Shown: positions 20,164 through 40,700 of the stretch, one piece after another
Layout of the letters: each line of letters opens with the position of its first letter
Numbering within the stretch: position 1 is the first letter of the stretch
Origin: Candidatus Latescibacterota bacterium
GTDB lineage: Bacteria; Latescibacterota; UBA2968; UBA8231
Reading direction: 5' to 3'
NCBI GenBank assembly: GCA_965242865.1
Contig: CBDETK010000013.1
Span: 4,096,001-4,160,000, forward strand
Length of the DNA: 64,000 bases
Made by a program: the position numbers and the translations under genes
Notes under the pieces: model-generated
Database searches by the model: none
Told to the model about the DNA's origin: nothing
What the model saw: only the letters and a program-made list of their open reading frames with translations

Positions 20164-20243
20164 GGTTTGCCTCCACCAGACAATGTGCTCGACGAGTTTA
20201 TGCCGCCGGCCTCACCCAACCGGACACGGGATTTGCTGCGTCC

Positions 20244-20292: not shown

Positions 20293-20392
20293 AGGTGTAG
20301 TAAGGGCCGCGACAGTTAATGGGGCGAAATAAATGGCGTTTCTGATAAGGGGGCAAGCACCGCGCCCTCGTCCTCCCAGCGGCGATGACCGC

Positions 20393-21166
20393 TCACCCCT
20401 TCGGCACCACCAGTGCGCGGTCGCCGTAGGGGATTGAATCCATTTCGGTGTCGTAGATTCGCTCCAGAAAGTCGCGGTCCCACGGCCGCTCGGCCGCCGG
20501 TAGCCGCTCTACCGCGCCATCCTTGAGGAAAATGAAGTGATCTCCGTATAGGAAAGCGCTGTTGGGGTCGTGCAGGACGGCGAGGACCGTGAGGTCGGCA
20601 TCGACCAATTCGCGGATTAGGCGCAGCAGGTGCGCTTGGTTGAGGAAATCGAGGTGCGAGCTCGGTTCGTCGAGGAGGATGAGCCGGGGCTGCTGTGCCA
20701 GAACCCGCGCGATGCGGACGAGCTGTTGCTCCCCCCCCGATAGCTCGGTGTAAGCGCGTTCCTTGAGATGGATAATGCCGACCCGCTCCAGCGCGGCCGT
20801 GCAGATTTCGACGTCCTCCCGCTTGGGGACATAAGCGACGTAGCTGGCGCGGCCAGTCAGGACCACGTCTTGGACGGAAAAGGGGAAAACGGGGCGGTGG
20901 TGCTGGGGTAAGTAGCCGAGGACGCGGGCTCGCCGCCGGGACGAGAAAGCGCGGAGTTCCTCCTCGTAGATATGCACTTGGCCGCGCTCAAAGTCGAGGA
21001 GGCCGCCGAGAATGCGCATGAGCGTTGATTTGCCGCTGCCGTTTTTGCCGAGCAGGACAGTGAACTGCCCGGTCGGGATTTCCAGCGAAATCTCGTTGAG
21101 GATCGGCCTTCCTTCGTAGGCAAAGAAGAGCTTCTCCACTCGAATCGCGGGGGCTAGGTCTCCCAT
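20393..21166 (-). CDS. ABC ATPase, FepC/BtuD (iron-siderophore/cobalamin) class
   Basis: GKNGSGKST, LSGGEQQ, LLDEP, VLHD. Confidence 0.92.
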   Translation of the reverse strand: MGDLAPAIRVEKLFFAYEGRPILNEISLEIPTGQFTVLLGKNGSGKSTLMRILGGLLDFERGQVHIYEEELRAFSSRRRARVLGYLPQHHRPVFPFSVQDVVLTGRASYVAYVPKREDVEICTAALERVGIIHLKERAYTELSGGEQQLVRIARVLAQQPRLILLDEPSSHLDFLNQAHLLRLIRELVDADLTVLAVLHDPNSAFLYGDHFIFLKDGAVERLPAAERPWDRDFLERIYDTEMDSIPYGDRALVVPKG

Positions 21167-22161: not shown

Positions 22162-23222
22162 GGGCTATTTTCCTGCCCCAATGAGAGGGGCGGTAGGTCT
22201 CCGAGCCGCCCCCCGTATAGCTTGTTTAGCAGGCTGGCCCGCAGCTTTTCCAAATCCGTTGCGGAGAAGCTGCTTGGGTAGCACCAGCGGGCGACGAGAT
22301 CGACGGTGAAGATGTATTTGAGGGTCCAGAAGTCGCACGAGAAGGGATCGGGTAGCTCGTGGACCTGCCCGTTGCGCACGGCCGAGAGCGAGCGCCAGCC
22401 GGATAGCTCGCCGATGTCCGCGGCATCGAGCCGGTCGTTGCACCACATAATGATCCGCTCTGGGTTCCAGACGAGGACGTTTTCGAGGTTGACGACGAGG
22501 TGCTCTAGCTCGCTGTCGGCCGCCACGTTGGTTCCCCCGGCCAGCTCGATGAGCTCTTGCACGGTGCTGTTGCGGCCGGCCGTCTCCAGCGGCCCTTGGT
22601 CCCACATGAAGTACACGCGCGGCTTGGTGCCGCCGAGGGCTGTCTTGCGCTGCACGGCCGCCAATTCCTCCTCGGCAATGGCGAGGAGCTCGGCCGCCCG
22701 TTCCTCTGTGTCGGTCAGCTTGCCGAGGGCGGTGATCTCGCGGTGAATGTCTGCAAAGCGCTCGATGAAGACGCCGAAAACCGGAATGCCTTTCTCTTCG
22801 AGGGCGGCGATGGATTCTTCTTGACCGGCCCAGAGGATGACTAAGTCGGGCTGCAGCGCGACCATGCTCTCGATGTTGACGAAATCCCAGTTTCCCGGGG
22901 TTGGCAGGGTGCGCTCGCGGATGCGCTGGTCCATGGCCGCGTAGTACGGGAAGACGCTTTCTTGGTAGATGTTGGTTGAAATGCCGACGAGACGCGCTTC
23001 GGCCCCGAGCATGTACAGGCCGCTGAGCGCGCTTTCGAGCAGGCAGACGATGCGCTCGGCCGGCTGGGCCAACTCGATGCGGCGGCCGCGGAAGTCGGTG
23101 ACCGCGACGCCCTCTCCGGCTGCCGGCTCGCTGGCGAGCAGGAGGCCGAAGAGAAGCAGCAAGAGCGGACGCTGGTATGCCGCGACCGCTCTCGTGCGAA
23201 GGATGGCTGCTTCAGCGGGCAT
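22158..23222 (-). CDS. class III (FepB/BtuF-like) periplasmic binding protein
   Basis: TDFRGR.I, PAERIV, NIES.VALQPDLV, IELAGG.NV, AVRNGQV; start codon uncertain. Confidence 0.88.
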   Translation of the reverse strand: MPAEAAILRTRAVAAYQRPLLLLLFGLLLASEPAAGEGVAVTDFRGRRIELAQPAERIVCLLESALSGLYMLGAEARLVGISTNIYQESVFPYYAAMDQRIRERTLPTPGNWDFVNIESMVALQPDLVILWAGQEESIAALEEKGIPVFGVFIERFADIHREITALGKLTDTEERAAELLAIAEEELAAVQRKTALGGTKPRVYFMWDQGPLETAGRNSTVQELIELAGGTNVAADSELEHLVVNLENVLVWNPERIIMWCNDRLDAADIGELSGWRSLSAVRNGQVHELPDPFSCDFWTLKYIFTVDLVARWCYPSSFSATDLEKLRASLLNKLYGGRLGDLPPLSLGQENSP

Positions 23223-23225
23223 TGA

Positions 23226-25220
23226 CTAGAAGGAGACCATTAGGCCGCCGTTAGCCGAGAAGCCGGGGTCTTGAAACTGCCACGGCATCTCAAAGGTTTG
23301 GTTGGTGATGTTGTACGGTTCGAGAAAGAGGTGCAAAGAGCCGATGCGCTGCTCTAGGCGGGCGTTCACCAGCGTGTACCCGTCGAAGATCTGGGCATCC
23401 TTGCTGACGTCCGAGTAAATGCCGCTGTAGGACTGCACTGAGACCGTCGCCCGCAAACCTTGCGTAAGGGTCAGGTGAACCCCGGCGCTGAGCGCGTTTT
23501 CCGGCACGAAGTTGATCTTGGCGCCGACCTTGCTCGGGTCTTCCGAGTTCTCCACCACTTCGGCGTTGGTGTAGGTGTAGTTGGCGAACCATTCTACCGT
23601 TTCGCTGAGGCGATGGGTAGCCTCTACTTCCACGCCGGCGGTCTCGGTGAGGCCGGCGTTGATGTCCTGCGACTGGGGTTTATCTGGAATCTCTCGCTGG
23701 ACGATCTGATCGTCGATCTGGATGGCGAATCCACGGACGCCGAGCCGCAATCCCTCTACCGGCTGGAAGTTTAGCCCCAAATCCAGACTGATCCCGGATT
23801 CCGGCTTGATGTCGGGATTCGGGAGATGACCGCTGTCCTCGCTGCCCAAGGGGACGGTGCCGCCTACCGACTTGAGGGAGGGTGCCTTGAAGCTGGTGCC
23901 CGAGTTGAAGTAGATAGCGAACATTTCGCTGTGGTTGTAGCGCACCCCGAAACTGGTTAGGAACTTGTTCCAAGAGTTGCTGTCGTCCCCTGGAGGAGCA
24001 CCCTGCAGCAGGTCGATGTCGTGGGAGATGCCGCTGTAACGCACCCCGCCGCGCAAGATGAAGCGGCTCAAATGCACCTCTTCTTGGGCGTAGAGGCCGA
24101 AAGCGGTGGCCGTGGCGTCGTTGCCGGGACTAACCGCGCCGGTCTCGCGAAAGGTCTCGTACGAGGCATGCTGATAGTCGGCCCCCACGGTGAGCACATC
24201 TGACTCGCGGGTTGTGAGGGAGAGGGAGAGGTCGGCCGGTATGACAGCTTGGTCAACTCCGTCCTCAGAGCGCAGTTCGCGGCTGGGGGGATCTTCCCAA
24301 ATGCCATCCTCCTCCCAGCGGCGCACGTAGTCGCGGTAGCCGATCTTGGCTTGGATGGTGGCTTTGTCGGAAATCGGGTTTGTGTACCCGGCGTTCAGGG
24401 TGGTGTAGATGTGGCCGAAGTCTCGATTGATGCGACCGGCGTCGCCGGTGTGCCAAGTGCGGTGGGCGTAGAGGGAGGCCCGTTGGCCGGTGTCGTTGAG
24501 GAAGTAGGTTCCTCGCATGTACATCTTGGTTTTCTCGTACTCCGGGTCGTCATCCATCTTCAGCCACGAGTCTTTGGTGCCGTAGTTGGTGTAGTCCGAA
24601 TCTTCGTGGTGGCCTCCGAAGAAGAGGTGGAGATTGCCGGCCGCGCGCTGGTGGAAGAAGCGGCCGCCGATGGTGTTGTAGGAGCCGTAGTAAGCCGAGG
24701 CGTTGGTGCGGGTGCTTCGGATGCGCTCCTTGAGGATGAAGTTGGCCGTCCCGGCCAGCGGCGATTGATTGCCGGCGAAGTCCATGGCCATATAGGTCGG
24801 GTAGAGCACTGAGGCCGACCCGCGCTGGTCTTCGACCCGCTGGAAGGCCCACGGGTCGAGGCTCTGGAGATCGACGAAGGCGTCAATCGGCAGGCCGTCG
24901 AGCATGTAGCCTTTGTACGTGTGCGCCAAGCCGCCGGAGGAGCCCCAGTTGGCGTCGTTGCGAGACAGCACATTGGCGAAATTGCCCGGGATGTACGAGA
25001 GCATCTCGGCGAGGTTGCCGTTGCCCAAGACCAGCGATCCCATGTCGTCGGCAGTGATAATGGAGATCTTTTGGGTCACATTCCCTGGGGTCTGCGGCAG
25101 CTTGGAGCCGGTGATGATCATTTCTCCCATTTCATAGACATCGTCATCGGCTTCGTCATCGGCCAGCACGGGTGCGCCGATGAGGAAAATGGGCAATGCA
25201 CTGAGAAGTAGGCGCTTCAT
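23226..25220 (-). CDS. TonB-dependent receptor
   Basis: Signal peptide, EMIITGS TonB-box region, RGSASVLY plug motif, NPDIKPE, C-terminal Phe. Confidence 0.9.
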   Translation of the reverse strand: MKRLLLSALPIFLIGAPVLADDEADDDVYEMGEMIITGSKLPQTPGNVTQKISIITADDMGSLVLGNGNLAEMLSYIPGNFANVLSRNDANWGSSGGLAHTYKGYMLDGLPIDAFVDLQSLDPWAFQRVEDQRGSASVLYPTYMAMDFAGNQSPLAGTANFILKERIRSTRTNASAYYGSYNTIGGRFFHQRAAGNLHLFFGGHHEDSDYTNYGTKDSWLKMDDDPEYEKTKMYMRGTYFLNDTGQRASLYAHRTWHTGDAGRINRDFGHIYTTLNAGYTNPISDKATIQAKIGYRDYVRRWEEDGIWEDPPSRELRSEDGVDQAVIPADLSLSLTTRESDVLTVGADYQHASYETFRETGAVSPGNDATATAFGLYAQEEVHLSRFILRGGVRYSGISHDIDLLQGAPPGDDSNSWNKFLTSFGVRYNHSEMFAIYFNSGTSFKAPSLKSVGGTVPLGSEDSGHLPNPDIKPESGISLDLGLNFQPVEGLRLGVRGFAIQIDDQIVQREIPDKPQSQDINAGLTETAGVEVEATHRLSETVEWFANYTYTNAEVVENSEDPSKVGAKINFVPENALSAGVHLTLTQGLRATVSVQSYSGIYSDVSKDAQIFDGYTLVNARLEQRIGSLHLFLEPYNITNQTFEMPWQFQDPGFSANGGLMVSF

Positions 25221-26302: not shown

Positions 26303-26443
26303 AAAACCCTATCCGCTTAGACAACTATATAAGCCCCTTTACTTGTTTGTTTGCGGTTACATAACTATCTTTCAAAATGCTTAACGATTTTGTATCTTGG
26401 ATAAAACAATTACAAACACATGGACAAAACAAGGAGAAACCTA

Positions 26444-28852
26444 ATGCAGCGTATGCTATCGCTATTCATCTTCCTCACCCTGTTGGGCGTAGGCGGCCTA
26501 GTGCTCGGTTCTACGGCTTGGGCTGATGGACACGAGGCCGCAGGCGTCAAGACCTATGAGGTCGGCGTCGAGATTGAGCCGCTGGAGTTGCCGGCGGTCA
26601 CGGGCGGTACGCCGCCGCTGACGTACAGCGTGTCGGGGCTGCCGGCAGGCTTGTCGTTTGACCCGGCCACGCGGACGATTTCGGGTACGCCCGAAGCCGT
26701 GGGCGAAGCGACCGTCACGTACACGGTTACGGACGCCGCAGGGGCTTCGAGTTCCGTGCCGTTTCTCGTGGAGGTCGTGGAGCCTGCTTTGGACGCGCCG
26801 GACAGGTTGATCGCCCAAGACTACATGGGGGCGGACGGTTCGGGCGACCAAGGCGGCTTTTTGCTGCTGACGTGGCCCCTGTCGGACGATCACGCCACGC
26901 TCGACGGCTATCGCATCTTCCGCGAGGTCCAAGTGACGCAGGGTTTGGCTCCGGTTGAGGCTGAAGAGGCTGAAGAGGGCGCAGACGAGGGGGAGGAGCC
27001 CGCGGAGCACATCCACGAGCATTTTCACGCGCATACCGAGGTCACCCATACGCACGCCCATACGCACGACGGAAGCGATGAAGCCCATGCCCACGACCAT
27101 CTCGAAGTTGCCGAAGTTACTGACGAAGCGGGCGAAGCCGACGATCCGGTCGTTCAAGGGGTCGTCGAGCTAGACGCGCCGGCGATGGAGATGATGCCGT
27201 GGGCGGTGGTGGATGCGGTGCCGGGTGTTGCCATTGGCCGCGCCATCGTCGCAACGCTCGACAATGTTGCGAGCAACTGGGGCATTGTGGCCGAGCGCGC
27301 CGGCGAGACCACGTTGATAACGGCGAAGGCCGCGTTTGTCCGCGCCGGCGATCTGAGCCAGCCCTACGAGCAGATGGCCGCAACGCTGCTGGCCAGCCGC
27401 GCGGCCGCCCAAGCTGGGGACGCGCCCGTGTTCGCCATGCTGCTGCCGGAAGCTCTCGCTTTTGCCGAGGGCGTGGCGCCCAAGCTGAATCTCGTGGCGT
27501 CGGGGCTGGAGCGTTCGCCCCTGACCGTTACCGAAGAGCCAGCGCGCGCGATTGACAACATCGCGCCGGCCGCCGTGCCGTTTCTGAGCGCGTTGGACGC
27601 GCCCAACGACGAGGGCAGCCGCATCGCGCTGATGTGGACGCGCTCGCCGTCCGACCGGCTCGTGCGAGGCGTTGCTGGGGCCGTTGGCCCGGCCGCGTCC
27701 GCGCCCGTCGCTGGCGTCGCCGGGTACGGCGTCTATCGCCGTGCGGCCGGTGCCGACGAATTCGTCTTGGTCGGTCGGGTCGCTGCGGGGGCTACGGCGT
27801 TTGTCGATGAAACCGCGCTCAACGGTGTGCATTACACCTATCAGGTGCGGGCCTACGACGCAGACAACGAAACCGCTTCGGTTGAGCAGACGGCACTGGC
27901 CGTGCGCAACCAAGTCGTCGATAGCGAAGGCCGCGTCCTGTTGGGCCTGTTTGGCGCGGACAACCGCGTCGGCTTTGACGATTTCTTCCTCTTGGCCGAT
28001 ATGTTCGGTCTGACGGCCGAAGACGCTGCGTTTGATCCGGCTTTTGACCTCGCGCCCAGCGCCCAGCCGCAGATTGATTTCGACGACTTCTTCGTGTTTG
28101 CCGATTACTTTGGGCGCAGCACGGGCGCGGCCGCCAAGCGCGTGCCCCGGCAGGCCGGTCTGAATGCGGATGCGCGGCTGTACCTAGAGGCGCAGACGGG
28201 GCTGCCGAGCGTGGGCGAGGACATCGTCCTCAACGTGCGGGTGGCCGATTTTGTCGCGCTGAGCGGCTACGGTCTGCAAGTGGAGTACGACGCTGATAAG
28301 CTGGCGTTTGTCGAGGTGCTCACCGAGCAGCCGCTGGGGGCCGGTGCGTTGGCCGCGCCGCAGGTGTTGGCTGACGAAGCAGGCGTCTTAGCGGTGGCCG
28401 CGCACGGGGATGTGGTCGCCGAAGGCGAGGTGGGGTTGAGCTTGGTCTTCCGCGCTACGGCCGCGATTGAGAACACGGTCCTCGAGATCACGGACAGCCA
28501 GCTATACGATAGCGAGTTCGGCGTCAACCGCCTCGGGCGGCCGATGCCGGTGGCGTTGCAGACGCGCCCGGAGGCCTTCGCGTTGGCGAACAACTATCCC
28601 AACCCGTTCAATCCGGCGACGACGATCCAATACGCGCTGCCGCAGGCGGCGGACGTGGAGTTGACCGTATATAATGTAGTCGGTCAGGTGGTGCGGACGT
28701 TGGTGGCCCAGCACCAGAACGCGGGACGCTACACGGTGGCGTGGGACGCGACCGACGATGGCGGGCATAGCCTGTCGTCCGGGATGTATTTCTATCACCT
28801 GCAAGCGGGCGACGAGTTCCGCGAAGTCAGGAAGATGCTGTTGCTCAAGTGA
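26444..28852 (+). CDS. secreted modular protein 1: putative-Ig domain, His/acid-rich insert, FnIII-like, EF-hand/dockerin-like pair, cohesin-like domain, FlgD/T9SS-like CTD
   Basis: RBS AAGGAG, signal peptide; [16 protein letters not shown]; VGFDDFF / IDFDDFF pair; [17 protein letters not shown]...KMLLLK. Confidence 0.8.
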
Positions 28853-28864: not shown

Positions 28865-28963
28865 CGTCATTCCCGCGAACGCGGGAATCCAGTCCTGTTC
28901 GGCTTGGTCCTTTTCTGGATTCCCGCTTGCGCGGGAATGACGTTTCAGTTCGCGGGAATGACG
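28865..28963. repeat. family B palindromes (ATTCCC-N8-GGGAAT core): inverted pair plus a half copy
   Basis: CGTCATTCCCGCGAACGCGGGAATCCAG (28865-28892), inverted copy 28915-28942, half copy 28951-28963. Confidence 0.9.
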
Positions 28964-29024
28964 CCTGAGGGACGTAACGGACATAAGGAACTTACTTTTT
29001 AATTTCCACGGAGGGTTAAACAGA

Positions 29025-32000
29025 ATGAAATCAGCAAAGGAATTTCTACGCACTTGGTTGCTGGCCGTTAGCTTGGCGTTGGGATGGGCCGGTGCTGCGG
29101 TCGCGGAGATTACCTTATCGGTAGATAAGCCTAAGATCCGCGAGGAGGCCGGGAAGACCGAGATCACAGTGACCGCCAAGATGGACGCGGATGCGACGGC
29201 GAACACGGCTGTGGCCTTGGTTTTAGGCACCAGCGCCGCTCCCGTTATCGGTGCCGGCAACACGCTTGATAACCATGGTCGTTTTACGCCTGGTACTGGA
29301 ACCCATTGGTACTATGCGGGGACTAGGCCGGGGGGCGACTGGAAAAGCTGGTACAATACCCGCTCCCATATCAACAGCCGCTTCGCCATCACCCTGCCGA
29401 CCATCGTGATTCCCAAGGGCAAGAAAGAGGCGACCGGGACGGTCATCCTCACGCCCACGAACAATGACGATCGCGGTTTTTACAATACCTACGACGATTT
29501 CACCATTCCTCATGACCTTGACGACGACTATCCCAAACGCTATCCCGATCTCGTCATCGAAATCGACGGCCTCGCCGGCGGCCAGACCGTCACGCCGGTG
29601 GAGATTCAAGTCGTTGACGACGAAAAGCTGAGCAGTCAGTTAGACCTTTCGTTTTCGCCGGCCAGCCTGAGCAAGGACGCGGGGCCGACCCAAGTTACCG
29701 TGACCGCGACCTTAAACGGCGGCACCCTGCGGTCGGACCAGACCTTTAACTTGGTTTTCACCAATGCCTCGGGCCTTGATGCCGCTGATTACCCGCAGGG
29801 GATTACTTTCTCCAACATCCTGACGCGCGATACGGATTACTCGGCGACGGCCGCGTCCCTCACCCTGCGCCGGAACAAGACGTCCGCGAAGGCGACGATT
29901 ACCATCGATCCCAAAGGCAAGGCGGGGCGCATTGTGCTCAAGGGTTCGCGGAGGGCGGTCCTCAAAGGCGTTGACTTGAACCTCGATGGGGATAGAAGAG
30001 ACACTTTGAGTACTTTTACAGCAGGTATCTATGTTGCTGCGCCCAGGCGAGTTCAGTTCAACGAACTCAGCCTAGGCTGCCGCACTTCCACCACCGGCGG
30101 CCCCCTTTCCCAACACGATGTCAACTTTGATGGGCGTTGCTACGGCATTCTTAGGGAAGCGAGACTCGGCGTTGACCTAAACGGCGATGGGGAGATTAGA
30201 CAACCGGCTAACAATGGCGTGATTTCTACTGATCCTGCTGATTTTGATCTCTGGGCAAGCGAAGAAGACGCCGCGGCCGCAGCGGAAGAGATAGACTTCG
30301 TCCATGACAAGCATCCGGGTGCTACGATTGTTTCGGGAGTGCCAAATGTAGGTGAAGAGTCGGATCCGGCTAGGTTTGGGTTGATTGAAAGCCTCTTGCC
30401 TCAGTACGTTACGATTCCCCCCCATTTCTTTGAGATAAAGTTCGCCCCCATCGTCGATCTCAAAGACCCGGAAGGCGGGCTGAGCGCGACCCCGGCGACG
30501 ATCCGCGAGGGGGCCGGGCGGTCGAATATCTCCCTGACAGTCACCTTGAATACTGCCCTAGAGGACGATGCGCGGGTGACGTTCACCATTGAGCCGGAAG
30601 AGGGCCGGCGCGACATCGATTACACAATCTCCCTGAGCGATCTCACCATTCCGGCCGGCGCCACCTCGGCTACAGCGACGCTTACCGTGACCCCGGTCGA
30701 TAACTCGATAGTGAATGCCTCGCGGAGCTTCATCGTGGTCGCCACGGTGGGGGATGGCTTCACCGAGGCGCGCGAGACCATTACCATTGTGGACGACGAG
30801 ACCCAGAGCTCCGAGATCACGCTGGTGGTGGCACCGCGGGAACTGACGGCCGGCGCGGGGACGCAAGAGATTACGGTGGTCGCCACCTTAGACGGCGAAG
30901 TGTTCGACGAGGACGTGCCCATAGTCTTGGTCGTCACCACCGATACGGACGCCGACGGCGACATGGATGCCGACGACAAAGCAGCCGTCCGCGACACCGA
31001 ATACACGGCCACGCTGCGGCCGCTGACGATCCCGGCCGGCAAGGTCAGCGGCTCGACGGTCGTGTCGATCACCCCGTTGGAAGGCGGCGACAAAAGGATC
31101 GGCCTGACCGCGCTGAAAAGCCCAGTCAAGAACGACGACGACGAGGACGTCACAGTCAGCACGGCGGTGATAACGCTGAAAGATGGCGACCCGGCCGCGC
31201 CGACGGCCCCGGACGCCCTCCGTTTCGTAGATGACATTGACGTGGTATCGACGGTGTTCGAGTACACGGTCGGCACGGCCATTGAGCCGTTCATCCTGCC
31301 GGCCGCGACCGGCGGCGTGGGCAACAAGATGTACAGCGTGTCCGCGAGCCTGCCGGCCGGGCTGTCGTTTGACGCGATCACCCGCACCCTGTCAGGCACG
31401 CCCACGGTGGCCGACACCGCCACCGTCATCTACACGGTCATTGACAGCGCCCCGGCCCCAGTCAACACCGATGCTCTCAGCCTCACCTTTGAGATCGGGT
31501 CGGCCCCGCCGCCCACGGTGAAGGTCGCCAGTGTGATCTCAACGCATTCGTCCGTGCGCGAAAACGGGGAGACGACCGCCATCCTCCTAACGGCGTCGCT
31601 GGCCGCTCCGTCGGCCAAGGCCGAGACGGTCCTGTTCACGATTGTCGCGCCTAGCGAGGGCACGCCGGCCGCACGCGATGCGGATTACACGGCCTCGCTC
31701 GGCGGCTCGGTCGTCATTGCCGCCGGCGAAACCGAGGGCCGGACGCTGCTGACCCTCACCCCCCTCGACAACGAGGAGGTCGATGGCAATCGGTTCTTGG
31801 GCGTGCAGGCGAAAGCCTCGGGCGGCGCAGCGCAGACGGACATCAAGATCGCCGACGACGAAACGCCGGCTACGGCCTTTGCCCTGTCGGTGGAGCCGCA
31901 CACGGTCAGCGAGGACGCCGGGGTGACCGAGGTTACGGTCACCGCGACCTTGGACGGCAAGGGGTTGGACGAGGAGACTACCGTAACCGTTATGGTCGAT

Positions 32001-33140
32001 CCCGCGTCGGTAGCCACGCGCGATTTGGATTATTCGGTGCTGTTCGATCCCTCGCTGGTCATTCCGGCCGGTGCGCTATCCGGTTCCCTGCTCTTGCTGC
32101 TCGACCCGACGCCCGATAGCGCGGACGAGGGCAGCGAGACGATCACGCTCAACGGCTCGTCCGCGAGCTTGACCGGCGGCTCAGTCCACATCACGCTGCT
32201 CGACGCCGGCAACACCACGACGACCCCGGAAGAGCCGGAAGAGCCGGAAGAGACGACGCCTCTCGCCTTTGCTGCCGGGACATCGGTGGATGCCCAAGAG
32301 TACACGGCTGGCGCGGCGATTGACGCTATGGCACTGCCGGCCGCAGCGGGCGGTATGGGCGACGTAACCTATAGCGTCTCCGACCTGCCGGCCGGGCTGT
32401 CGTTTAACCCAGCTACGCGGACGCTGTCGGGCATCCCGAACACGGCGACCGACGGAGCGGTTGAAGTCACCTACACGGCGACCGACGGAGCGGGCAACAC
32501 CGCGTCGTTGACCCTTTCCATTGAGGTCAGCGCCATGCTGATGTTTGACAACTTTTTCGACTTTTTCGCCCAGTTCCTCGGGGCGGGCAAGGTCGTGCCC
32601 ACAGCGTCCGGCGACGGGGCTGCCCTCCGCGAGTTCGTCGTAGGCGAGCCGGTGGAGGCCATCGTGCTGCCCCCTGCCCAAGGCGGCACCGCGCCCCTGA
32701 CGTATAGCCTGTCGCCAGCGCTGCCGGCCGGGCTGGCGTTTGACGCGGCCACCCGCACAATTTCCGGGACGCCGCAAGCCGAGGGTTCGCCCGTCTATAC
32801 GTACACGGTGACGGACGCGACCGGCGCGCAGGTAGAGATGCTGCTGCAGACGCGGCCCGCCGCCTTTACCTTGACCAGCAACTATCCCAACCCGTTCAAC
32901 CCGGCCACGACGATCCAATACGCGCTGCCGCAAGCGGCCGACGTGCAGTTGACCGTGTACAACGTCGTCGGTCAGGTGGTGCGGACGCTGGTGGCCGAGC
33001 ATCAGAGCGCTGGCCGCTACTTGGTGACGTGGGACGCAACCGACGATAGCGGGCACAGCCTGTCGTCGGGGTTGTATTTCTACCGCCTGCAGGCCGGGGA
33101 TGAGTTTCACGCGGTCAAGAAGATGCTGCTGTTCAAGTAA
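29025..33140 (+). CDS. secreted repeat protein 2: Calx-beta-like/Ig-like repeats, putative-Ig repeats, FlgD/T9SS-like CTD
   Basis: Signal peptide; repeated (I/V)REDAG..VT.T, RDxDY, IPAG..(S/E)G.T..TP.D, I.DD(D/E) units; LPAGL(S/A)F x3; CTD. Confidence 0.8.
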   Translation: MKSAKEFLRTWLLAVSLALGWAGAAVAEITLSVDKPKIREEAGKTEITVTAKMDADATANTAVALVLGTSAAPVIGAGNTLDNHGRFTPGTGTHWYYAGTRPGGDWKSWYNTRSHINSRFAITLPTIVIPKGKKEATGTVILTPTNNDDRGFYNTYDDFTIPHDLDDDYPKRYPDLVIEIDGLAGGQTVTPVEIQVVDDEKLSSQLDLSFSPASLSKDAGPTQVTVTATLNGGTLRSDQTFNLVFTNASGLDAADYPQGITFSNILTRDTDYSATAASLTLRRNKTSAKATITIDPKGKAGRIVLKGSRRAVLKGVDLNLDGDRRDTLSTFTAGIYVAAPRRVQFNELSLGCRTSTTGGPLSQHDVNFDGRCYGILREARLGVDLNGDGEIRQPANNGVISTDPADFDLWASEEDAAAAAEEIDFVHDKHPGATIVSGVPNVGEESDPARFGLIESLLPQYVTIPPHFFEIKFAPIVDLKDPEGGLSATPATIREGAGRSNISLTVTLNTALEDDARVTFTIEPEEGRRDIDYTISLSDLTIPAGATSATATLTVTPVDNSIVNASRSFIVVATVGDGFTEARETITIVDDETQSSEITLVVAPRELTAGAGTQEITVVATLDGEVFDEDVPIVLVVTTDTDADGDMDADDKAAVRDTEYTATLRPLTIPAGKVSGSTVVSITPLEGGDKRIGLTALKSPVKNDDDEDVTVSTAVITLKDGDPAAPTAPDALRFVDDIDVVSTVFEYTVGTAIEPFILPAATGGVGNKMYSVSASLPAGLSFDAITRTLSGTPTVADTATVIYTVIDSAPAPVNTDALSLTFEIGSAPPPTVKVASVISTHSSVRENGETTAILLTASLAAPSAKAETVLFTIVAPSEGTPAARDADYTASLGGSVVIAAGETEGRTLLTLTPLDNEEVDGNRFLGVQAKASGGAAQTDIKIADDETPATAFALSVEPHTVSEDAGVTEVTVTATLDGKGLDEETTVTVMVDPASVATRDLDYSVLFDPSLVIPAGALSGSLLLLLDPTPDSADEGSETITLNGSSASLTGGSVHITLLDAGNTTTTPEEPEEPEETTPLAFAAGTSVDAQEYTAGAAIDAMALPAAAGGMGDVTYSVSDLPAGLSFNPATRTLSGIPNTATDGAVEVTYTATDGAGNTASLTLSIEVSAMLMFDNFFDFFAQFLGAGKVVPTASGDGAALREFVVGEPVEAIVLPPAQGGTAPLTYSLSPALPAGLAFDAATRTISGTPQAEGSPVYTYTVTDATGAQVEMLLQTRPAAFTLTSNYPNPFNPATTIQYALPQAADVQLTVYNVVGQVVRTLVAEHQSAGRYLVTWDATDDSGHSLSSGLYFYRLQAGDEFHAVKKMLLFK

Positions 33141-33391: not shown

Positions 33392-33418
33392 GTCATTCCC
33401 GCGAAAGCGGGAATCCAG
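33392..33418. repeat. family B palindrome (plus a partial GCGGGAATCCAG near 33318)
   Basis: GTCATTCCCGCGAAAGCGGGAATCCAG. Confidence 0.88.
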
Positions 33419-33474: not shown

Positions 33475-36400
33475 ATGATACACACAAAGTTGTCGATACG
33501 GCGCTGGGCGTACGGGCCTTGGCTGCTGGCCGCTGGTCTGGTGTTGGGGTGGAGCGAGGACGCTGTGGCTATTTCCAGCTCTACGTCCGGCCATAGCACG
33601 GCGGCAAATCATCCTCATGCCACCAATCCCAATTTGATTTTGACGTATGACCTGAACAGCTCCGGTACAGACCATTCGATTACTGTAAACTGGAGTACGT
33701 CTCGCTCTAGGAATTTCAGCACGGGGAATGGGGCCGCGGCCACCGTGTACGCGGTGAGTTTATACAGCGGCGAGATCGATTCGGATCTTAGCAGCCCTAG
33801 CGATACTCGAATAGGTACTGAACAGTCGTATTCCGGTGCCTCTGTCGGCACCCGCACCTATTCCTTTACGGACGCCGCGATTAAGTATGAGGGCGAAGAG
33901 GGAGGAGCTACGGGCAACTACTGGGTCAGGATGGCGGTGACGGTGACCAGCACGGACGTGGATCATGCTACGAGCGTCCAGTATTTTGCAAAGCAGATAA
34001 CGGCGCGTGCGGACTACATACTGTCGGTGAATCCCAATAGTATCCGCGAGGACGCCCGCAGGACCAGTGTTACGGTAAAAGTCAAGGTCGGCAATGACGT
34101 CGCGGTAACTAAAAATACGAATGTGAACTTGAGGTTCTCTATTCCCCCGGGTAAGCTCGGGCTCAATGACCGCTTCTATATCGTTATGCCCACGCTCGCG
34201 ATTGCCAAGGGCAAGAAAGAGGCGACCGGGACGCTCATCTTTACCCCCATTAGCGAAGACACTGAAAACGAGGACCTCGCGATCACAATCTCGGGCGATG
34301 CCACCGCGCAGGAGGCCGTCAAGCCGGCCGTGATTACGCTAATTGACACGGACAAGCAAAGCGACGCGATCAATCTTTCGTTCTCGGATTCCGATCTAAG
34401 CAAGCGGGATGGTACAATCGATATCGTCGTGACGGCCACCCTGAACGGGAAGACCCAAAGAAGAGACCTGAGATTTTCCTTGGTTATTGACGAGACGAGG
34501 GGCTTGGAACGCGATGTAGATTACACGGCGGTCATGGCTCGGATAACCATTCCCGACCGCAAGGTGTCGGGCAGGGCGACGATTTCCATCCGCCCCAAGA
34601 ACGCAGGAACCGGCTCTATCTGGATCGGGGCGTCTGCCGACGTTGACCTGACGAATGACGACGGCGCCACCATAACGGTTAATCCCAATTTTATCGACAT
34701 AACGGGCGATCCCGCTGGATCGATTACCGGGCTGACCGCGGCGCCGTTCTCGGTCCGCGAGGACGCTGGCGAGAAGACGATCACCCTGAAGGTTTCCTTG
34801 GAGAACGCCTTGGTGGCGGCCGAGAGGGTCCAGTTCACCATTACGGACGACAGCGACGATCTGGGCGAGGCTTTTGCCGGCGCGGTGGATGCGGAGCGGG
34901 ATGTGGATTACGCGGCCGAAGTGGGGTCGCTCACCATTCCCAAGGGCGCGACCGAAGGGACGACGACCATGACCGTCACCCCGGTCAACAACAAAGACGA
35001 CGATCCGCCCCGGGCCTTTAAGGTGAATGCGCGGGTTGGCAACAACGAATCCTTTGTCGCGGGAATCCTGATTACCGACGACGACACCACCAGCGATTCG
35101 ATCACGCTAGAGGCGGAGCCGGCCGAGATAAACGAGGACGCGGGGCCGACCGAGATTACGGTGACCGGCACCTTAAACGGAAAGGTGTTCGACGATAACG
35201 TGATCGTGTCCTTGGTCGTTGACAACGATGTTAACGACGATGGCGACATCGATGACGATGATATGGCGGCCACGCGCGATGCCGACTACACAGCCATCCT
35301 TCGCCCGTTGGTGATTCCGGCTGGAGCGGTGTCCGGGACGACCACGGTCACGGTCACCCCCATTGCCAACGATGGAGAGGAAGACGACGAGAAGTTCCGC
35401 TTGGCGACGCTGGAGTCTAGACCGCCCCGCGGCGAAGACGACGGAGACCTCCAAGAGCTAGAGGTCAACCCGGTGACGATCACGCTGAAAGACGTCGAGG
35501 ATTCAGCCACGCCGTCCAAGACGCCGGACCCCAAGGTCCCGGCCTTTGCCAGCGCCGATTCGGTGGCCGCCCAAGAGTACGAGGTCGGGAAGGCGATTGC
35601 CGATCTCGTGCTGCCGGAAGCTACCGGCGGCGATGGCACCCTGACGTACAGCGTCTCGACCCTGCCGGCCGGCCTGACGTTTAACAGCTCAACGCGGACG
35701 CTTTCGGGCACGCCGATAGTGGTCGGAACCTCCACCATCGTGTACACGGTGATCGACAGCGACAGCGACGCGGCCGCCCTGACCTTTCCCATTGCGGTCG
35801 CCGCGGCTTCAGCGCCGGAGCCAGCCCCAGCCCCGCCGCCGGCCAACGCTGCGCTGACCGCGAGTCCTTCGTCCGTCCGCGAGGACGCTGAAGCGACGCA
35901 AGTATTTCTGACCGCGACCTTGCCAGCGCCCAAAGCCACGCCCGAACGAGTGACGTTTACGCTCGTAGGTCCGAGCGCGGGTACACCAGCCGTGCGCGAT
36001 TTGGACTACACCGCGATACTGGGAAAGAAAATTACCATTCCCGCCGGAGCGACCGTTGGGACGACGGCCTTCCCCCTCACCCCTATTGACAACACCGCGG
36101 TGGATGGGGCGAAAGCGCTGGGTGTGCAGGCTGCGTTCTCATCCGGTGGGGTGCTGCTGACCAACATCGAGATCGCGGACGACGAAACCCCGAGTACGTC
36201 GATCTCGCTGTCGGTGAATCCGCGCACGATAAGCGAGGAAGGCGCTGAGGTCTCCGTTGCGGTGACCGCCACGTTGGATGGGAAGGCGTTGCTATCGGAC
36301 GCGACCGTGCGCCTGACCATTGATGGCACTTCGACCGCGACGCGTGATGAGGACTACGCCGCGCTGTTCAATCCGCTGCTGGTGATCCCGGCTGGCTGGA

Positions 36401-37464
36401 TAACCGGGTCAACCCTGTTTGCGGTCCGCCCAATCGACGACACGGTCGCAGAGGGCAACGAGATCATCAAGCTGACTGGTACGATTGCCGGTCTGGCCGG
36501 TGACGAGGTCGAGATCATCCTGAGCGACCGAGGGACGGAAGAGCCACCGGAGGAGCCGGAGCCCGAGGAGCCCGCGCCCGAGGATCCGTCCCTTGCGTTT
36601 GCGGACGACGTTTCAATCGCGGACCAACGGTACACGGCCGAGAGGCCGGTTCCCGCTCTCGTCCTGCCGGCCGCTTCGGGCGGGTCGGGCGGCTTGCAGT
36701 ACAGCGTCTCGGCTCTGCCAGCGGGCTTGTCGTTTGACGCGGCCACGCGGACGGTTTCCGGGACGCCAGCGGAGGCCACCGAGGACGCGGTCGTCATCAT
36801 CTACACGGTCATCGACAGCGACGGCGCCGCGGCCGCGTTGACCTTCACCATCAAGGTCAATCCCCCGCTGAGTTTTGCAGCGCTTTTCGATTTGTTCAAC
36901 AGTATGGCCGGTAAGATCGTTCCGACGGCCGCGCCCAACGCGGCTGAAATCCGCGAATTTGTCGTTGGCCGCCTCGTGGAGGGCCTCGCGCTCCCGGAGG
37001 GGACCGGCGGCACCGCGCCCCTGACGTATCGCCTTTCGCCGGCCCTGCCAGCGGGCTTGTCGTTTGACGCAGCCACGCGGACGATTGCCGGCACGCCGCG
37101 AGCCGCGGCCGAACCCGTCTATACGTACACGGTTACGGACGCCAATGGCGCGAGCGCGTCGCTGGCATTGCACACGCGCCCGGCCGAATTCGCGCTGGCA
37201 GCCAATTTTCCGAACCCGTTCAACCCGGCGACGACGATCCAATACGCGCTGCCGCAAGCCGCGGATGTGGAGCTAATGGTGTACAACGTCGTCGGCCAGC
37301 CCGTTCGCACGCTCGTCGCCGAGCACCAGAGCGCGGGGCGGTATGTCGTGGAGTGGGACGCGACCGACGATAGCGGTCGCAGCCTGTCATCGGGAATGTA
37401 CTTCTACCGCTTGCAGGCGGGCGGCGAGTTCCACGCGATTAAAAAAATGCTGCTGCTCAAGTAG
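33475..37464 (+). CDS. secreted repeat protein 3, paralog of protein 2 with an extra N-terminal domain
   Basis: Same repeat units and CTD; unique Ser/Thr/Tyr-rich segment of ~145 aa after the signal peptide. Confidence 0.8.
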   Translation: MIHTKLSIRRWAYGPWLLAAGLVLGWSEDAVAISSSTSGHSTAANHPHATNPNLILTYDLNSSGTDHSITVNWSTSRSRNFSTGNGAAATVYAVSLYSGEIDSDLSSPSDTRIGTEQSYSGASVGTRTYSFTDAAIKYEGEEGGATGNYWVRMAVTVTSTDVDHATSVQYFAKQITARADYILSVNPNSIREDARRTSVTVKVKVGNDVAVTKNTNVNLRFSIPPGKLGLNDRFYIVMPTLAIAKGKKEATGTLIFTPISEDTENEDLAITISGDATAQEAVKPAVITLIDTDKQSDAINLSFSDSDLSKRDGTIDIVVTATLNGKTQRRDLRFSLVIDETRGLERDVDYTAVMARITIPDRKVSGRATISIRPKNAGTGSIWIGASADVDLTNDDGATITVNPNFIDITGDPAGSITGLTAAPFSVREDAGEKTITLKVSLENALVAAERVQFTITDDSDDLGEAFAGAVDAERDVDYAAEVGSLTIPKGATEGTTTMTVTPVNNKDDDPPRAFKVNARVGNNESFVAGILITDDDTTSDSITLEAEPAEINEDAGPTEITVTGTLNGKVFDDNVIVSLVVDNDVNDDGDIDDDDMAATRDADYTAILRPLVIPAGAVSGTTTVTVTPIANDGEEDDEKFRLATLESRPPRGEDDGDLQELEVNPVTITLKDVEDSATPSKTPDPKVPAFASADSVAAQEYEVGKAIADLVLPEATGGDGTLTYSVSTLPAGLTFNSSTRTLSGTPIVVGTSTIVYTVIDSDSDAAALTFPIAVAAASAPEPAPAPPPANAALTASPSSVREDAEATQVFLTATLPAPKATPERVTFTLVGPSAGTPAVRDLDYTAILGKKITIPAGATVGTTAFPLTPIDNTAVDGAKALGVQAAFSSGGVLLTNIEIADDETPSTSISLSVNPRTISEEGAEVSVAVTATLDGKALLSDATVRLTIDGTSTATRDEDYAALFNPLLVIPAGWITGSTLFAVRPIDDTVAEGNEIIKLTGTIAGLAGDEVEIILSDRGTEEPPEEPEPEEPAPEDPSLAFADDVSIADQRYTAERPVPALVLPAASGGSGGLQYSVSALPAGLSFDAATRTVSGTPAEATEDAVVIIYTVIDSDGAAAALTFTIKVNPPLSFAALFDLFNSMAGKIVPTAAPNAAEIREFVVGRLVEGLALPEGTGGTAPLTYRLSPALPAGLSFDAATRTIAGTPRAAAEPVYTYTVTDANGASASLALHTRPAEFALAANFPNPFNPATTIQYALPQAADVELMVYNVVGQPVRTLVAEHQSAGRYVVEWDATDDSGRSLSSGMYFYRLQAGGEFHAIKKMLLLK

Positions 37465-37530: not shown

Positions 37531-37746
37531 ATGGACTGGAATAATCCGCTTATCTATATAGTTCCCGGACTAGCGATCCTTAGTGGAATTATCTATCTCT
37601 CTAGATGGATGGGTAAGACAGACGAGTCTGTTCGTCTTATCGAAGAGGCCATCAAGGAAATAAAATCCGACATCAAGGAAATACTGAGGCAGTTTTCTGG
37701 ATCGGCTGTTGAAAGAAGACCTGAATCCGGGGAGGTTGAACAATGA
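37531..37746 (+). CDS. small single-TM, coiled-coil protein
   Basis: RBS AAGGA, N-terminal hydrophobic helix, IKEIKSDIKEIL heptads; ATGA overlap with the next gene. Confidence 0.65.
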   Translation: MDWNNPLIYIVPGLAILSGIIYLSRWMGKTDESVRLIEEAIKEIKSDIKEILRQFSGSAVERRPESGEVEQ

Positions 37747-40700
37747 TACAGAGAAAGCGGTTGCGGCGGCGTCTTTGGCTCTGGGCCGCTGGTTTGGTGT
37801 TGGGGTGGGTCGGGGTGGCTGCGGCGCAGGAGGAGCAGGCCGACTACAAGCTGTCGGTCAATCCCAGCAGTGTGCGCGAGGACGCCGGGCCGACCAATAT
37901 CGAGGTGACGGTTGAAGTTACCGATGATACCGCGGTGGAGACAGATACTTATGTGCTCTTGGGCGTCTCAGACGAAGGGTTTAATAGCCGCTTCCGCCTG
38001 ACGCTGACCGCTCTCAGGATTCCGGCTGGCAAGAAAAAGGCAACCGGGCAGCTCACCTTCATCCCGGTTGATGATAGGGTCGTCAACGACGGGGGCGATC
38101 TGGACATTACGCTCAGCGGCAATGTTGGCAGCGGTAGGACGGTTGAAGCGACGACGCTCACGCTGATTGACGACGACAAGGATAGCCAAAACATCCATCT
38201 GTCGGCCAATATCGTCGAGTTAAACAGGTTCGATGGCGCGACCGAGATCGCGGTGACGGCCACGTTGGACGGCAAGGAACTAAGAAGGGCGACGACCTTT
38301 GTGTTGACGATTGGCGATCATCCCGACTTGAACGCCACCCCCAACAGCGAGGCCGCTGCGACCAAGGACAATCGCGAGGCGCAGCGCGACTTGGACTACA
38401 CAGTGACGCTGGCGCCGCTGACGATTCCGCGCAACTCGGTATCGGGCACCGCGACAATTACCATCACCCCGAAAAACCGGCTGCCCGGCACGATCCGAGT
38501 GGGATCCCCCACCGGGAGGGTAGAAGTTGGCGACGACGAGCTAACGATCCACCCGGTGGATCTAAAAATAAAAAAGGAGGTCGCGGCCGCGCCCGATGCC
38601 ATCGCGCTGAGTCGAGAACGCGTGCGCGAGGACGCCGGGGCGACGACGATCACGCTGAACGTCACCTTGAAGAATCCCGTGGTTGAGGACGAGACAGTGA
38701 GTCTCGTCGTTTTGCCGGTCGGCTCAGTTTTGCCGTCTGGCGGTACGGTGCCGAGCACGCCGACCCGCGATGTGCATTACACCCTGTCCTTTGGTCCACC
38801 GCTCGTCATTCCGGCCGGTGATTCTGCGGGGACGACGACGTTCACCCTGACCCCGATTGACGACGACTCGGTGGTTGCACGCGGGTCGATATACATAAGG
38901 GTTGCAGTCGGCGACGTATTGACTACGAAAGCCATTGAGATCGCCGACGACGACGCGACTAGCACCCAAATCGCGCTGACAGTGGAGCCGACCTCGATTA
39001 GCGAAGGAGCGGGTAGCACGGAGGTTGCAGTGACCGGAACGTTGAACGGAAAGGTCCTCGACGATGACGTGGTCGTGCGCTTGACCATTGACCCGGATCC
39101 CAAGGACACAGACGATGAGGGCCAGAGCGTCGATGTTGCAGAGGCCACGCGCGACATTGACTACACGGCCAGCCTGCGTCCCCTGACGATTCCGGCCGGC
39201 GCAGTGTCGGGCACGACGACGATCACCATCACCCCGATTGACGACGGCGTCGTGGATGCCAGCGAGACCATCCGGCTGACATCCGCGAGCAATCAAGTCA
39301 CGGCCGCGGACGGTCTCCAGCTAACCGTCAGCGCGGTGGATATAATGCTGAGAGATCCCGGGGAGGGCGGTGCGCCGTTCTTTGCGGCAGGTGTTACCAT
39401 TGCCGACCGGACCTACTCGGTGGGTGCGGCGATTGCCAACTTGGTGTTGCCGGAGGCTGCGGGCGGCACCGGCGACCTGACGTACGAGGTGTCGGTGCTG
39501 CCAGCGGGCTTGTCGTTTGACGAGGTCCGGCGGACGCTTTCGGGCACGCCGGTGGCAGCAACCGAGGCCCCAGTCACCATTACCTACACGGCGACTGACC
39601 GCGACGGCAACGCAGCGAGGCGGACCTTCACCATTGCGATACTGGCCGAAGCTGTGACGGTGCTGGCCTTTGCCGAAGACGCTGCCGTCGCCGACCAGAC
39701 GTACGCTGCGGGGACGGCGATTGCCGATTTGGTGCTACCGGAAGCGACGGGCGGTGCCGGCGACCTGAGATACCACCTGTTGACCTTACCGGCGGGCTTG
39801 TCGTTCAACGGGGCCACGCGGACGCTTTCGGGTACGCCGACCGCAGCCACCAACTGTGCGGTTGAAGTCACTTATATGGCGACCGATCTCAACCGGGACG
39901 CGACCGCGTTGACGTTCTCCATCACGGTCACTGCGCCTGAGCAGCCGGCGGCCGAGCTCGCTGGGCTGGCCGTGGCACCGGCGGTGATCCGCGAGGACGC
40001 CGCGACGACCGACCTCTCGCTGACGGTCACCTTGGCGGCCGCCGCGGACGAGGACGAGAGCGTGCGGTTCACGCTCGTCGAGCCGAGCGATGGCTCGCCC
40101 GCCGTGCGCGATGTGAACTACAGTGCGGTGCTACAAGCGCTGATAGTCATTCCGGCGGGCGCGACCGAGGGAACGACGACCCTGAGCCTCACGCCCATTG
40201 ACGACGCTGAGAGCGATGGCCCGAAGGCGTTGGGGGTACAGGCGATGCTCGTGTCAACCGGCGCGACCCTAGTGACGGACATCGAGATCCGAGACGACGA
40301 AGCCCCGAGTACGGCCATCTGGCTATCGGCCGCGCCGAGCGCATTGAGTGAGCAGGCCGATTTGACCACCGTTATCCTGACCGCCACGTTGGACGGGCAG
40401 GCGTTGGCCGCCGATGCGACCGTGCATTTGTCCATTGATGAAGCATCAACGGCGACGCGCGACTTGGACTACGCCGCGCTGTTTACGCCGCGGATCGAAA
40501 TTCCGGCCGGCTCGACAACGGGGACGCTGCGCTTTTACATCGACCCGGTGGCCGACGATTTGGCCGAGGGCGAGGAATTCATCCGGCTGCTCGGTGCGAT
40601 CGACGGGCTGACCGGGGACGCGGTACAAATCGTCCTGAGCGATTCCGAGGCGGCCAAGGCGGTGGCGCAAGTTCAGCCGGTCGCATTTACGTTGGCGAAC

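Follow-up and report, generated by a model that had tools for sequence, protein, structure and literature searches.

The locus and the layout of protein 2

We analyzed a 64,000-nucleotide stretch of the forward strand (hereafter the window; positions 4,096,001 to 4,160,000 of contig CBDETK010000013.1) from a Candidatus Latescibacterota bacterium (assembly GCA_965242865.1). It carries four co-oriented genes on the + strand, at 26420-28852 (protein 1), 29025-33140 (protein 2), 33475-37464 (protein 3), and 37743-40961 (protein 4). Our subject is D1, the first domain of protein 2, two long loops of which a preliminary description had likened to the complementarity-determining regions (CDRs) of antibodies. 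Each of the four proteins has a signal peptide at its N terminus and a type IX secretion system (T9SS) sorting domain of type A at its C terminus, with matches to Pfam FlgD_ig and Por_Secre_tail and to TIGR04183 (29.8 to 36.6 bits; cutoff, 23), and He_PIG domains are present in each. Proteins 2 to 4 contain, in addition, many repeats with the motifs xxE(D/E)AG...RDxDY...IPAG...DDE. The T9SS machinery is encoded in the same genome, where PorU (model NF033707, 624 bits; cutoff, 420) and SprA (TIGR04189, 482 bits; cutoff, 200) were recovered together with 96 matches to the T9SS C-terminal domain (CTD) model. Protein 2 is composed, in order, of the signal peptide, the D1 head, D2, a variable module, the Calx-beta-like repeats D3 to D6 (with boundaries taken from a repeat alignment) interspersed with three He_PIG domains, and the CTD (TIGR04183, 36.6 bits against a cutoff of 23; Pfam Por_Secre_tail, 29.0 against 27). 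Its main features are the following.

29025..33140, + strand: gene of protein 2 (1371 aa), from the open reading frame (ORF), its translation, and matches to Pfam He_PIG, FlgD_ig, and Por_Secre_tail and to TIGR04183
29025..29105, + strand: signal peptide, residues 1-27, read from the sequence, with a predicted cleavage site between AVA and E
29106..29627, + strand: D1 head, residues 28-201, modeled as a seven-strand Calx-beta/DUF1735-like beta-sandwich (AlphaFold2, Foldseek, and VIA-align)
29628..29948, + strand: D2, residues 202-308, a second Calx-beta-like domain (repeat alignment and model)
32865..33137, + strand: T9SS type A C-terminal sorting domain, residues 1281-1371 (Pfam and TIGR04183)

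The hydrophobic core of the signal peptide (LLAVSLALGWAG) is kept in homologs and, since the peptide ends at residue 27 by the predicted cleavage, D1 would lie at the mature N terminus. For Porphyromonas gingivalis, the available portions of two reports describe type A CTDs as being cleaved and the protein as being attached to the cell surface, and in the studied Bacteroidota such cargo is anchored through its C terminus (PMC8545088, PMC9143113). We assume, by analogy with P. gingivalis, that the CTD of protein 2 would likewise be cleaved and the protein anchored; with C-terminal anchoring and D1 directly after the signal peptide, D1 would be the distal domain. The layout as a whole fits that of a fibrillar adhesin: a modified D1 forms the predicted N terminus of the mature protein, there are six Calx-beta-like repeats and three He_PIG domains, and a T9SS CTD closes the chain.

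Anatomy and fold of the first domain

Relative to its counterparts in proteins 3 and 4, D1 of protein 2 has ~40 extra residues after strand C and ~20 after strand E. The same two gaps are seen in a MAFFT alignment of the three domains, in BLASTP (E = 1e-13 and 31% identity between the D1 domains of proteins 2 and 3), and when D1 is aligned to the remaining repeats in proteins 2 to 4. Insertion 1 (VALVL...INSRF, residues 68-116) faces 9 residues in protein 3 and 5 in protein 4, and insertion 2 (LTP...DL, residues 144-174) faces 8 to 10 residues in both. By the repeat alignment, insertion 1 is the C-D loop (RDxDY in ordinary repeats, NSRF in D1) and insertion 2 is the E-F loop, which in ordinary repeats is an 8-residue xDDxxxEG turn. 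The C-D and E-F loops measure 8 to 10 and 8 residues, respectively, in ordinary repeats, 5 to 88 and 7 to 74 in heads, and 49 and 31 in D1 of protein 2.

An exhaustive HMMER search of 1.84 billion representatives recovered only 40 proteins at E <= 1e-3 (9 at E <= 1e-10). A word-indexed search also returned 40 proteins, 38 of them full-length (1319 to 1576 aa), with the same architecture and both insertions. The relatives with this family in the genome collection are Candidatus Latescibacterota metagenome-assembled genomes; within the genus, the head was detected in 14 of the 30 other genomes (many of the misses being fragmented assemblies) versus none of the 137 genomes of the phylum's other genera. 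The genome under study encodes three full-length long-loop paralogs, protein 2 included, which are ~70% identical and dispersed, and three short-loop heads, namely, proteins 3 and 4 and a 1831-aa protein. A related genome keeps the same gene cluster and has at least five long-loop paralogs. Our alignment of the family (A1) left out the near-duplicates P0054 and P0070 and the short-loop P0082 and P0083. Counts given below refer to its 37 full-length rows, with the fragment rows P0006, P0007, and P0009 excluded, and a 95% identity filter reduced these to 32 rows, from which the segment lengths and identities were taken. The features of D1 and its counterparts are as follows.

29226..29324, + strand: loop 1a, with which the C-D loop begins, hypervariable, residues 68-100 (14 to 73 aa; mean pairwise identity, 0.24)
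29325..29372, + strand: loop 1b, second part of the C-D loop, conserved and aromatic, RPGGDWKSWYNTRSHI, residues 101-116 (always 16 aa; identity, 0.70)
Residues 117-143: D-E strands (27 aa; identity, 0.80 over 32 rows)
29413..29441, + strand: 29-bp stretch identical to 34205-34233 in the protein 3 gene, encoding PKGKKEATGT of the D-E turn and the start of strand E
29454..29510, + strand: loop 2a, first part of the E-F loop, conserved and aromatic/acidic, PTNNDDRGFYNTYDDFTIP, residues 144-162 (always 19 aa; identity, 0.80)
29511..29546, + strand: loop 2b, residues 163-174, HDLDDDYPKRYP, with a variable tip from 163 to ~171 and an invariant closing motif, RYP, at 172-174
Residues 144-174: whole loop 2 (31 to 75 aa; identity, 0.42 over 32 rows)
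Other framework and D2: identity, 0.63 to 0.66 over 32 rows
34009..34359, + strand: short-loop D1 counterpart in protein 3, residues 179-295 (MAFFT, repeat alignment, and BLASTP)
37839..38183, + strand: short-loop D1 counterpart in protein 4, residues 33-147 (MAFFT and repeat alignment)

Loops 1b and 2a are as conserved as the framework, and the hypervariability is confined to loop 1a and residues 163 to ~171. Invariant in all 37 rows are D105, W109, N117, F120, R150, G151, T155, Y156, D157, T160, P162, Y173, P174, and D175 (the last just outside the loop), with W106 and K107 present in 36 rows and W95 in 34; where loop 2 is longer in homologs, the extra residues are inserted between FTIP and RYPDL. 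The loops are rich in aromatic residues: W, Y, F, and H account for 17 of the 80 loop residues of protein 2 D1 versus 1 of its 92 framework residues and, pooled over the 37 homologs, for 14 to 23% of the loops (14 to 18% of their variable parts) versus 1.2% of the framework. Loop 2 additionally contains 21 to 33% D/E. As read from these alignments, each insertion is a conserved aromatic/acidic element bearing a variable tip and is not simply CDR-like.

The 29-mer shared by the genes of proteins 2 and 3 occurs exactly twice, at 29413 and 34205 (none expected from 100 shuffles). The two genes share only four exact matches of at least 20 bp, among which the 29-mer is tied for the greatest length, and the D-E turn that it encodes lies at the pole opposite the two loops.

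We predicted the fold with two AlphaFold2 models, one of residues 27-320 (294 residues, from a 40-row alignment) and one of 454 residues. The former has a mean predicted local distance difference test score (pLDDT) of 72, with values of 84 to 96 in the framework and <50 in the insertions. Its D1 strands are A (2-7), A' (11-13), B (19-27), C (35-41), D (94-103), E (109-118), F (150-158), and G (161-171) in model numbering, to which 26 is added for the protein residue. In both models, the order is A, A', B, C, insertion 1, D, E, insertion 2, F, G. The top PDB matches of the D1-D2 model in Foldseek are the tandem CBD12 structures of NCX1 and CALX (E = 5.5e-8 to 3e-6). With D1 alone, VIA-align gave Z scores of 9.4 for the BT_3987 N-terminal domain, 9.1 for another DUF1735 domain, 8.7 for 4dqa, and 8.1 to 8.3 for CALX-CBD1 (106 to 108 aligned residues at a root mean square deviation of 2.9 to 3.2), which are middling values all within about one Z unit of each other. 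The assignment is further supported because the sibling repeats approach the Pfam Calx-beta cutoff: a canonical repeat in homolog P0079 scores 26.5 bits against 27. Pfam Calx-beta matches D2 at E = 0.07, and the distant matches of the family search are strong Calx-beta proteins (e.g., P0008, 204 bits). A PDB search with a profile of five canonical repeats gave nothing significant, and an ESM Atlas search gave only leads below 0.9, to LapA and Calx-beta clusters. An antibody heavy chain, the best PDB sequence match of D1 (E = 0.99), was dismissed as a chance match. It is safe to state on these models that D1 is a divergent Calx-beta/DUF1735-like sandwich.

When the strands of a sandwich run up and down, strand G ends at the pole that also bears the A-B, C-D, and E-F loops. 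Because the C-D and E-F loops share a pole by strand order, both insertions are predicted to leave the same pole of D1, which by the same criterion would be the one facing D2. This pole corresponds to what we take to be the Ca2+-binding pole of the Calx-beta domain CBD1 of NCX and CALX, in which Ca2+ is presumably bound by acidic residues at the end of strand G and in three loops (A-B, C-D, and E-F). In D1, the conserved residues at these sites include E40 (36 of 37 rows) and E41 in the A-B loop, D/N146, D148, and the nonacidic N147 at the start of E-F, and D198 and D199 (each in 37 of 37 rows) and E200 at the end of strand G.

The preliminary description stands in part in the light of these results. 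The two insertions that it read by eye are borne out by three independent alignments, its constant framework with 29 identical bp at 29413 and 34205 is an exact match within D-E strands that are 0.80 identical across homologs, its aromatic-rich loops recur in the residue counts, and both loop sites are hotspots of length and sequence in the homolog alignment (14 to 73 aa in loop 1a and 31 to 75 aa in loop 2). Its suggestion that the loops cluster on one face agrees with the strand order of two models, which is an argument from topology as the loops themselves have pLDDT values of <50. The span that it assigned to the loops, 29229-29546 (residues 69-174), does take in both of them but also includes the conserved D-E strands in between. 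The protein 3 domain that it treated as a first repeat is preceded by ~150 residues. This extra N-terminal region (residues 30-175; 33562-33999) is rich in His, Ser, and Thr (HSTAANHPHATNPNL...), is common to homologs P0024, P0031, P0044, P0082, and P0083, and has no Pfam match.

Sequence change and candidate functions

The closest ortholog differs at 62 of 1371 residues, of which 7 fall in the 33 residues of loop 1a (Fisher p = 2e-4) and 23 in residues 316-470, with ~2.5% difference in residues 471-1280. Among 10 near-identical orthologs (mean identity, 0.887), there are only three regions of low identity, namely, loop 1a (0.46 to 0.49) and two segments after D2 (0.30 to 0.49 and 0.33 to 0.39), all sharply bounded by nearly or fully identical blocks. 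The types of variable segments reassort between alleles, which indicates recombination between them. Nei-Gojobori ratios of nonsynonymous to synonymous rates (dN/dS) were obtained from the three paralogs of this genome and five of one relative. Loop 1a of protein 2 gave 1.04 and 1.22 against the two in-genome paralogs (0.45 between those two), with 0.12 to 0.52 in framework segments and 0.41 to 0.43 over the whole gene. Four paralog pairs of the related genome gave 1.09 to 1.86 in loop 1a, 1.02 to 1.50 in loop 2b, and 0.13 to 0.26 in the rest of the gene. Compared with the rest, the tips show a strong excess of nonsynonymous over synonymous changes in the related-genome pairs (p = 1e-10 to 1e-15), and the corresponding values for the genome of the window are p = 0.009 to 0.014. 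At the level of these sequences, the tips are released from purifying selection; diversifying selection is compatible with the data and not proven.

The stretch is contained in 11 public runs, five labeled sponge metagenome, one labeled plain metagenome, and five with coded organism names. We compared Logan contigs, from which rare variants are dropped, from four runs of three studies. Across both loops, contigs from other sponge samples match the allele of the window, one study differing at 7 of 423 bp and another at 0 of 458 bp, and in one contig from another sponge sample 8 of 12 differences fall in loop 1a (99 of 430 bp; p = 0.0016). Divergent contig pieces that might have been loop variants (e.g., 80 bp replaced by 92 at 29243-29324) proved to be in-genome paralogs, and a scan of metagenome contigs with alignment A1 yielded 333 pattern matches, none of which was confirmed.

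Several observations concern the same domains. The variable module after D2 (residues 316-470; 29970-30434) contains three DxNxDG motifs resembling Ca2+ loops (DLNLDGD, DVNFDGRC, and DLNGDGEI) and two conserved Cys. It has a model pLDDT of 48 to 90 and no relative in Pfam or in a PDB sequence search with residues 300-480. The C-D loop of D2 is also enlarged, to 23 to 33 aa in homologs, in subfamily-specific forms of which some have two Cys; the C-D site hence appears to be tolerant of insertions across the family. In D1 of the related-genome paralogs (L008, L009, L023, and L024), dS is uneven, at 0.45 to 1.48 in strands A to C (dN/dS, 0.02 to 0.07) and 0.05 to 0.21 in strands D-E and F-G, which along with the 29-bp identity of proteins 2 and 3 suggests mosaic gene conversion.

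The invariant platform, fast-changing aromatic tips, divergent paralogs, and host-associated habitat together led us to the proposal that a fibrillar adhesin has its ligand-binding head in D1 and that this head has diversified via paralogs and recombining alleles, to which we assign an even chance. The anatomy, conservation pattern, rates, secretion context, and fold are established by the results above, and ligand binding by the loops is what we infer. Protein 2 would then be a cell-surface fiber exported by Sec and the T9SS and held at its C terminus, with D1 at the far end, where a stalk-type Calx-beta-like repeat would have been converted into a head via grown C-D (49 residues) and E-F (31 residues) loops. 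The conserved inner halves of these loops (DWKxW...NxRF and RGFYNTYDDFTIP...RYPD) would most likely pack together as a fixed platform, probably where D1 joins D2, around the acidic pole of Ca2+ type, which may bind Ca2+. The aromatic-rich outer halves would most likely determine which ligand is recognized, be it a glycan or a protein, from the sponge matrix or from some other cell. Duplication (three copies here and at least five in the relative), substitution at a nearly neutral or faster rate, indels, and recombination of alleles would supply the diversity.

Several results weigh against this proposal. Both insertions have pLDDT values of <50 in the 294- and 454-residue models, and the loops could therefore be flexible. 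They are located at the pole abutting D2 rather than at the free N-terminal tip, and that tip, made of the B-C, D-E, and F-G turns, carries the most conserved motif of D1, PKGKKEATG. Loop 2 is conserved in this particular subfamily, with no changes relative to the closest ortholog and with 76 to 80% of residues 126-175 unchanged across the three paralogs of the genome. The dN/dS values of >1 are not significant by themselves (one-sided p = 0.065 to 0.58), and relaxed constraint accounts equally well for the loop rates. Lastly, D1 matches no Pfam family at E <= 10, and thus has no Calx-beta (PF03160) match above the gathering score, and a PDB sequence search with D1 recovered nothing significant, i.e., no solved relative by sequence.

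The low pLDDT values and the dN/dS of ~1, not significantly above it, are also what would be expected if the insertions were tolerated decorations, i.e., flexible loops with no partner whose variable parts drift unconstrained; the frequent indels in homologs and the insertion tolerance of the C-D loops of D2 and D4 fit this as well. Against it, half of each insertion is near-invariant over 37 homologs, the variable parts remain aromatic (14 to 18% W/Y/F/H pooled, with W95 in 34 of 37 rows), and their boundaries with near-identical blocks are sharp. A high aromatic content is unusual for disordered linkers, and we hold this explanation to be unlikely, though one to be taken seriously. A structural role, with the insertions forming a Ca2+-stabilized collar between D1 and D2 that would cap the end of the stalk, make it stiffer, or let fibers associate with one another, and the tips as by-products, would account for the placement of both loops at the pole corresponding to the presumed Ca2+ pole of CBD1 and for the conserved acidic positions (E40, D/N146, D148, D198, and D199, with the 21 to 33% D/E of loop 2). 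It leaves unexplained the sharp hypervariable segments, the indels, and the different versions in three to five paralogs per genome, and we regard it as rather improbable. Localized hypervariability, mosaic reassortment of segments, several paralogs per genome, and a host-associated habitat form a pattern typical of exposed antigens, and the tips might accordingly vary to escape phages that use the fiber as a receptor or the uptake or immune receptors of the sponge, rather than to alter what protein 2 itself binds. None of our data separates escape from ligand-driven change, and both can hold together; escape as the explanation is, in our estimate, rather improbable.

As for how the diversity arose, duplication, substitution, indels, and allelic recombination are sufficient, and programmed diversification is unlikely. 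Apart from the hypervariability itself, nothing points to a dedicated mechanism such as a diversity-generating retroelement (DGR), cassette conversion, or slippage. The only RVT_1 (reverse transcriptase) match of the genome is ~1.36 Mb from the locus, a genomewide blastn search for a template copy of the D1 DNA returned only two full paralogs and two short framework matches, neither tandem nor cassette-like repeats were found in the gene, and the same allele is present in contigs of the two independent sponge studies. We judge that such a mechanism is extremely improbable. The available parts of two reports describe the sponge Aggregation Factor as a Ca2+-dependent, highly polymorphic complex of adhesion and allorecognition that contains Calx-beta domains (PMC5400394, PMC11670116). 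The D1 head and the module after D2 might conceivably constitute a germline-encoded, recombining recognition repertoire on a Calx-beta scaffold (three to six paralogs per genome, multiplied by mosaic alleles) that docks onto this system or passes as part of it, the tips tracking host polymorphism; we consider this a long shot.

Surroundings of the locus and their relevance

The genes flanking the four are of the housekeeping type, namely, glutamate synthase, a TonB/ABC/NicO uptake cluster, and an ABC-2 exporter, and no Rfam match was found within the window. Palindromes similar to repetitive extragenic palindromic (REP) elements, TTCCCGC(N4)GCGGGAA, lie between the genes around protein 2 (28865-28963 and 33396-33413) and at 63045; there are 78 copies in the genome and 4 in the window. 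They account for an ~1000-fold spike in contig depth at 28900-28981 in the public runs compared. Protein 1 has a His-rich region of alternating H-x-H (residues 197-227; 27008-27100) followed by two dockerin-like DFDDFF...F(G) motifs, and its gene adjoins a metal-uptake cluster of a TonB receptor, FecCD/ABC, and NicO at 19234-25220. Protein 1 is possibly a metal-binding protein of the cell surface. Elsewhere in the genome, two long series of ORFs of ~700 to 950 aa, each ending in a T9SS CTD (C13:3157996-3203553, with at least 20 such ORFs, and C13:367171-408543), look like large paralog arrays of secreted proteins. The long-loop paralog at C13:2380492-2384616 adjoins a 716-aa ORF with leucine-rich-repeat-like sequence (C13:2384537-2386684); leucine-rich-repeat proteins are a eukaryote-like repeat class reported to be enriched in sponge symbionts.

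How sponge symbionts hold on to the host and avoid being eaten is poorly understood, and the accessible portion of a survey of their genomes gives only domain counts (cadherin, fibronectin, and eukaryote-like repeats; PMC8163846). The locus offers a concrete and testable candidate, in the form of genus-restricted T9SS surface fibers in which the outermost stalk repeat appears to have been turned into a head and fast change is sharply localized. If the loops are flexible and lack a partner, the finding shrinks to an insertion-tolerant site in a repeat protein. A literature search, with the supplementary tables of PMC8163846 outside its scope, found no description of the D1 family or of variable loops on Calx-beta adhesin heads, and nothing joining Latescibacter with type IX secretion or Calx-beta adhesins with hypervariability. 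Variable adhesin tips are a familiar theme; what is new here is the scaffold, where its loops sit, their two-part anatomy, and the organism.

Comparison with known systems

The closest parallel in overall layout is with fibrillar adhesins, which the consulted portions of two reports describe as having a stalk of repeated Ig-like domains and a terminal adhesive domain; these also note their fast evolution and ask if stalk domains can gain binding functions (PMC9210967, 10.1101/2020.12.07.414375). Protein 2 shares with them a signal peptide, a long stalk of tandem beta-sandwiches, a surface anchor, and a distinct domain at the other end. It differs in that its head is a stalk-type repeat with two loop insertions and no separate adhesive fold, its anchor is a T9SS type A CTD, it belongs to an uncultured, sponge-associated member of Latescibacterota, and its binding is predicted. 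In MSCRAMM-type adhesins such as ClfA and FnBPA, both of which were among the weak Foldseek matches, the ligand is bound in a trench between two Ig-like domains. Protein 2 likewise has two tandem Ig-like domains at its distal end, and its loops at the interdomain junction are a candidate ligand trench, but there is no sequence relationship and no latch motif was identified in protein 2, so that the likeness is a lead only. The variable proteins of DGRs (Mtd and TvpA type) are similar in their localized hypervariability in a surface protein of an uncultured, host-associated bacterium and dissimilar in that the locus described here has no nearby reverse transcriptase, template repeat, or C-type lectin fold.

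Calx-beta domains are found, according to the parts available of three reports, in CBD1-CBD2 of NCX1/CALX, integrin beta4, the sponge Aggregation Factor, and Ca2+-dependent adhesins of bacteria such as BapP and LapA (PMC12153261, PMC5400394, PMC11670116). D1 resembles them in its seven-strand sandwich, with CBD12 as the best Foldseek matches, in the RDxDY...IPAG...DDE motifs of its sibling repeats, and in its acidic pole formed by A-B, E-F, and the end of G. It departs from them in having no Pfam match, NSRF in place of RDxDY, and C-D and E-F loops 5 to 6 and 4 times longer, respectively, than those of its siblings, and DUF1735/BT_3987-like domains fit its fold at least as well (Z = 9.1 to 9.4).

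Antibody CDRs are the B-C, C'-C", and F-G loops at the N-terminal pole of the V-set fold. What D1 has in common with antibody V domains, and with engineered fibronectin type III and Ig scaffolds, is a constant sandwich with Tyr/Trp-rich loops at one pole that vary in length and sequence. The preliminary description was right to this extent, in that the framework is constant, the loops are aromatic, and residues 68-100 and ~163-171 are hypervariable; the likeness does not extend to residues 101-116 and 144-162, which are of fixed length and 70 to 80% identical. Nor are the insertions at the positions of CDRs, being C-D and E-F loops at the opposite, C-terminal pole with large invariant portions, and the domain is not of the V-set, its best folds being Calx-beta and DUF1735, with antibody chains appearing only as generic two-sandwich matches (template-modeling score, 0.2). 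The diversity of D1 lies solely among germline paralogs and alleles, and neither a somatic nor a programmed source of it was found. We conclude that D1 is probably a tunable binding site, not an antibody-like system, and that it exemplifies a natural nonantibody sandwich, of the predicted Calx-beta type, bearing long variable loops at its C-D/E-F pole.

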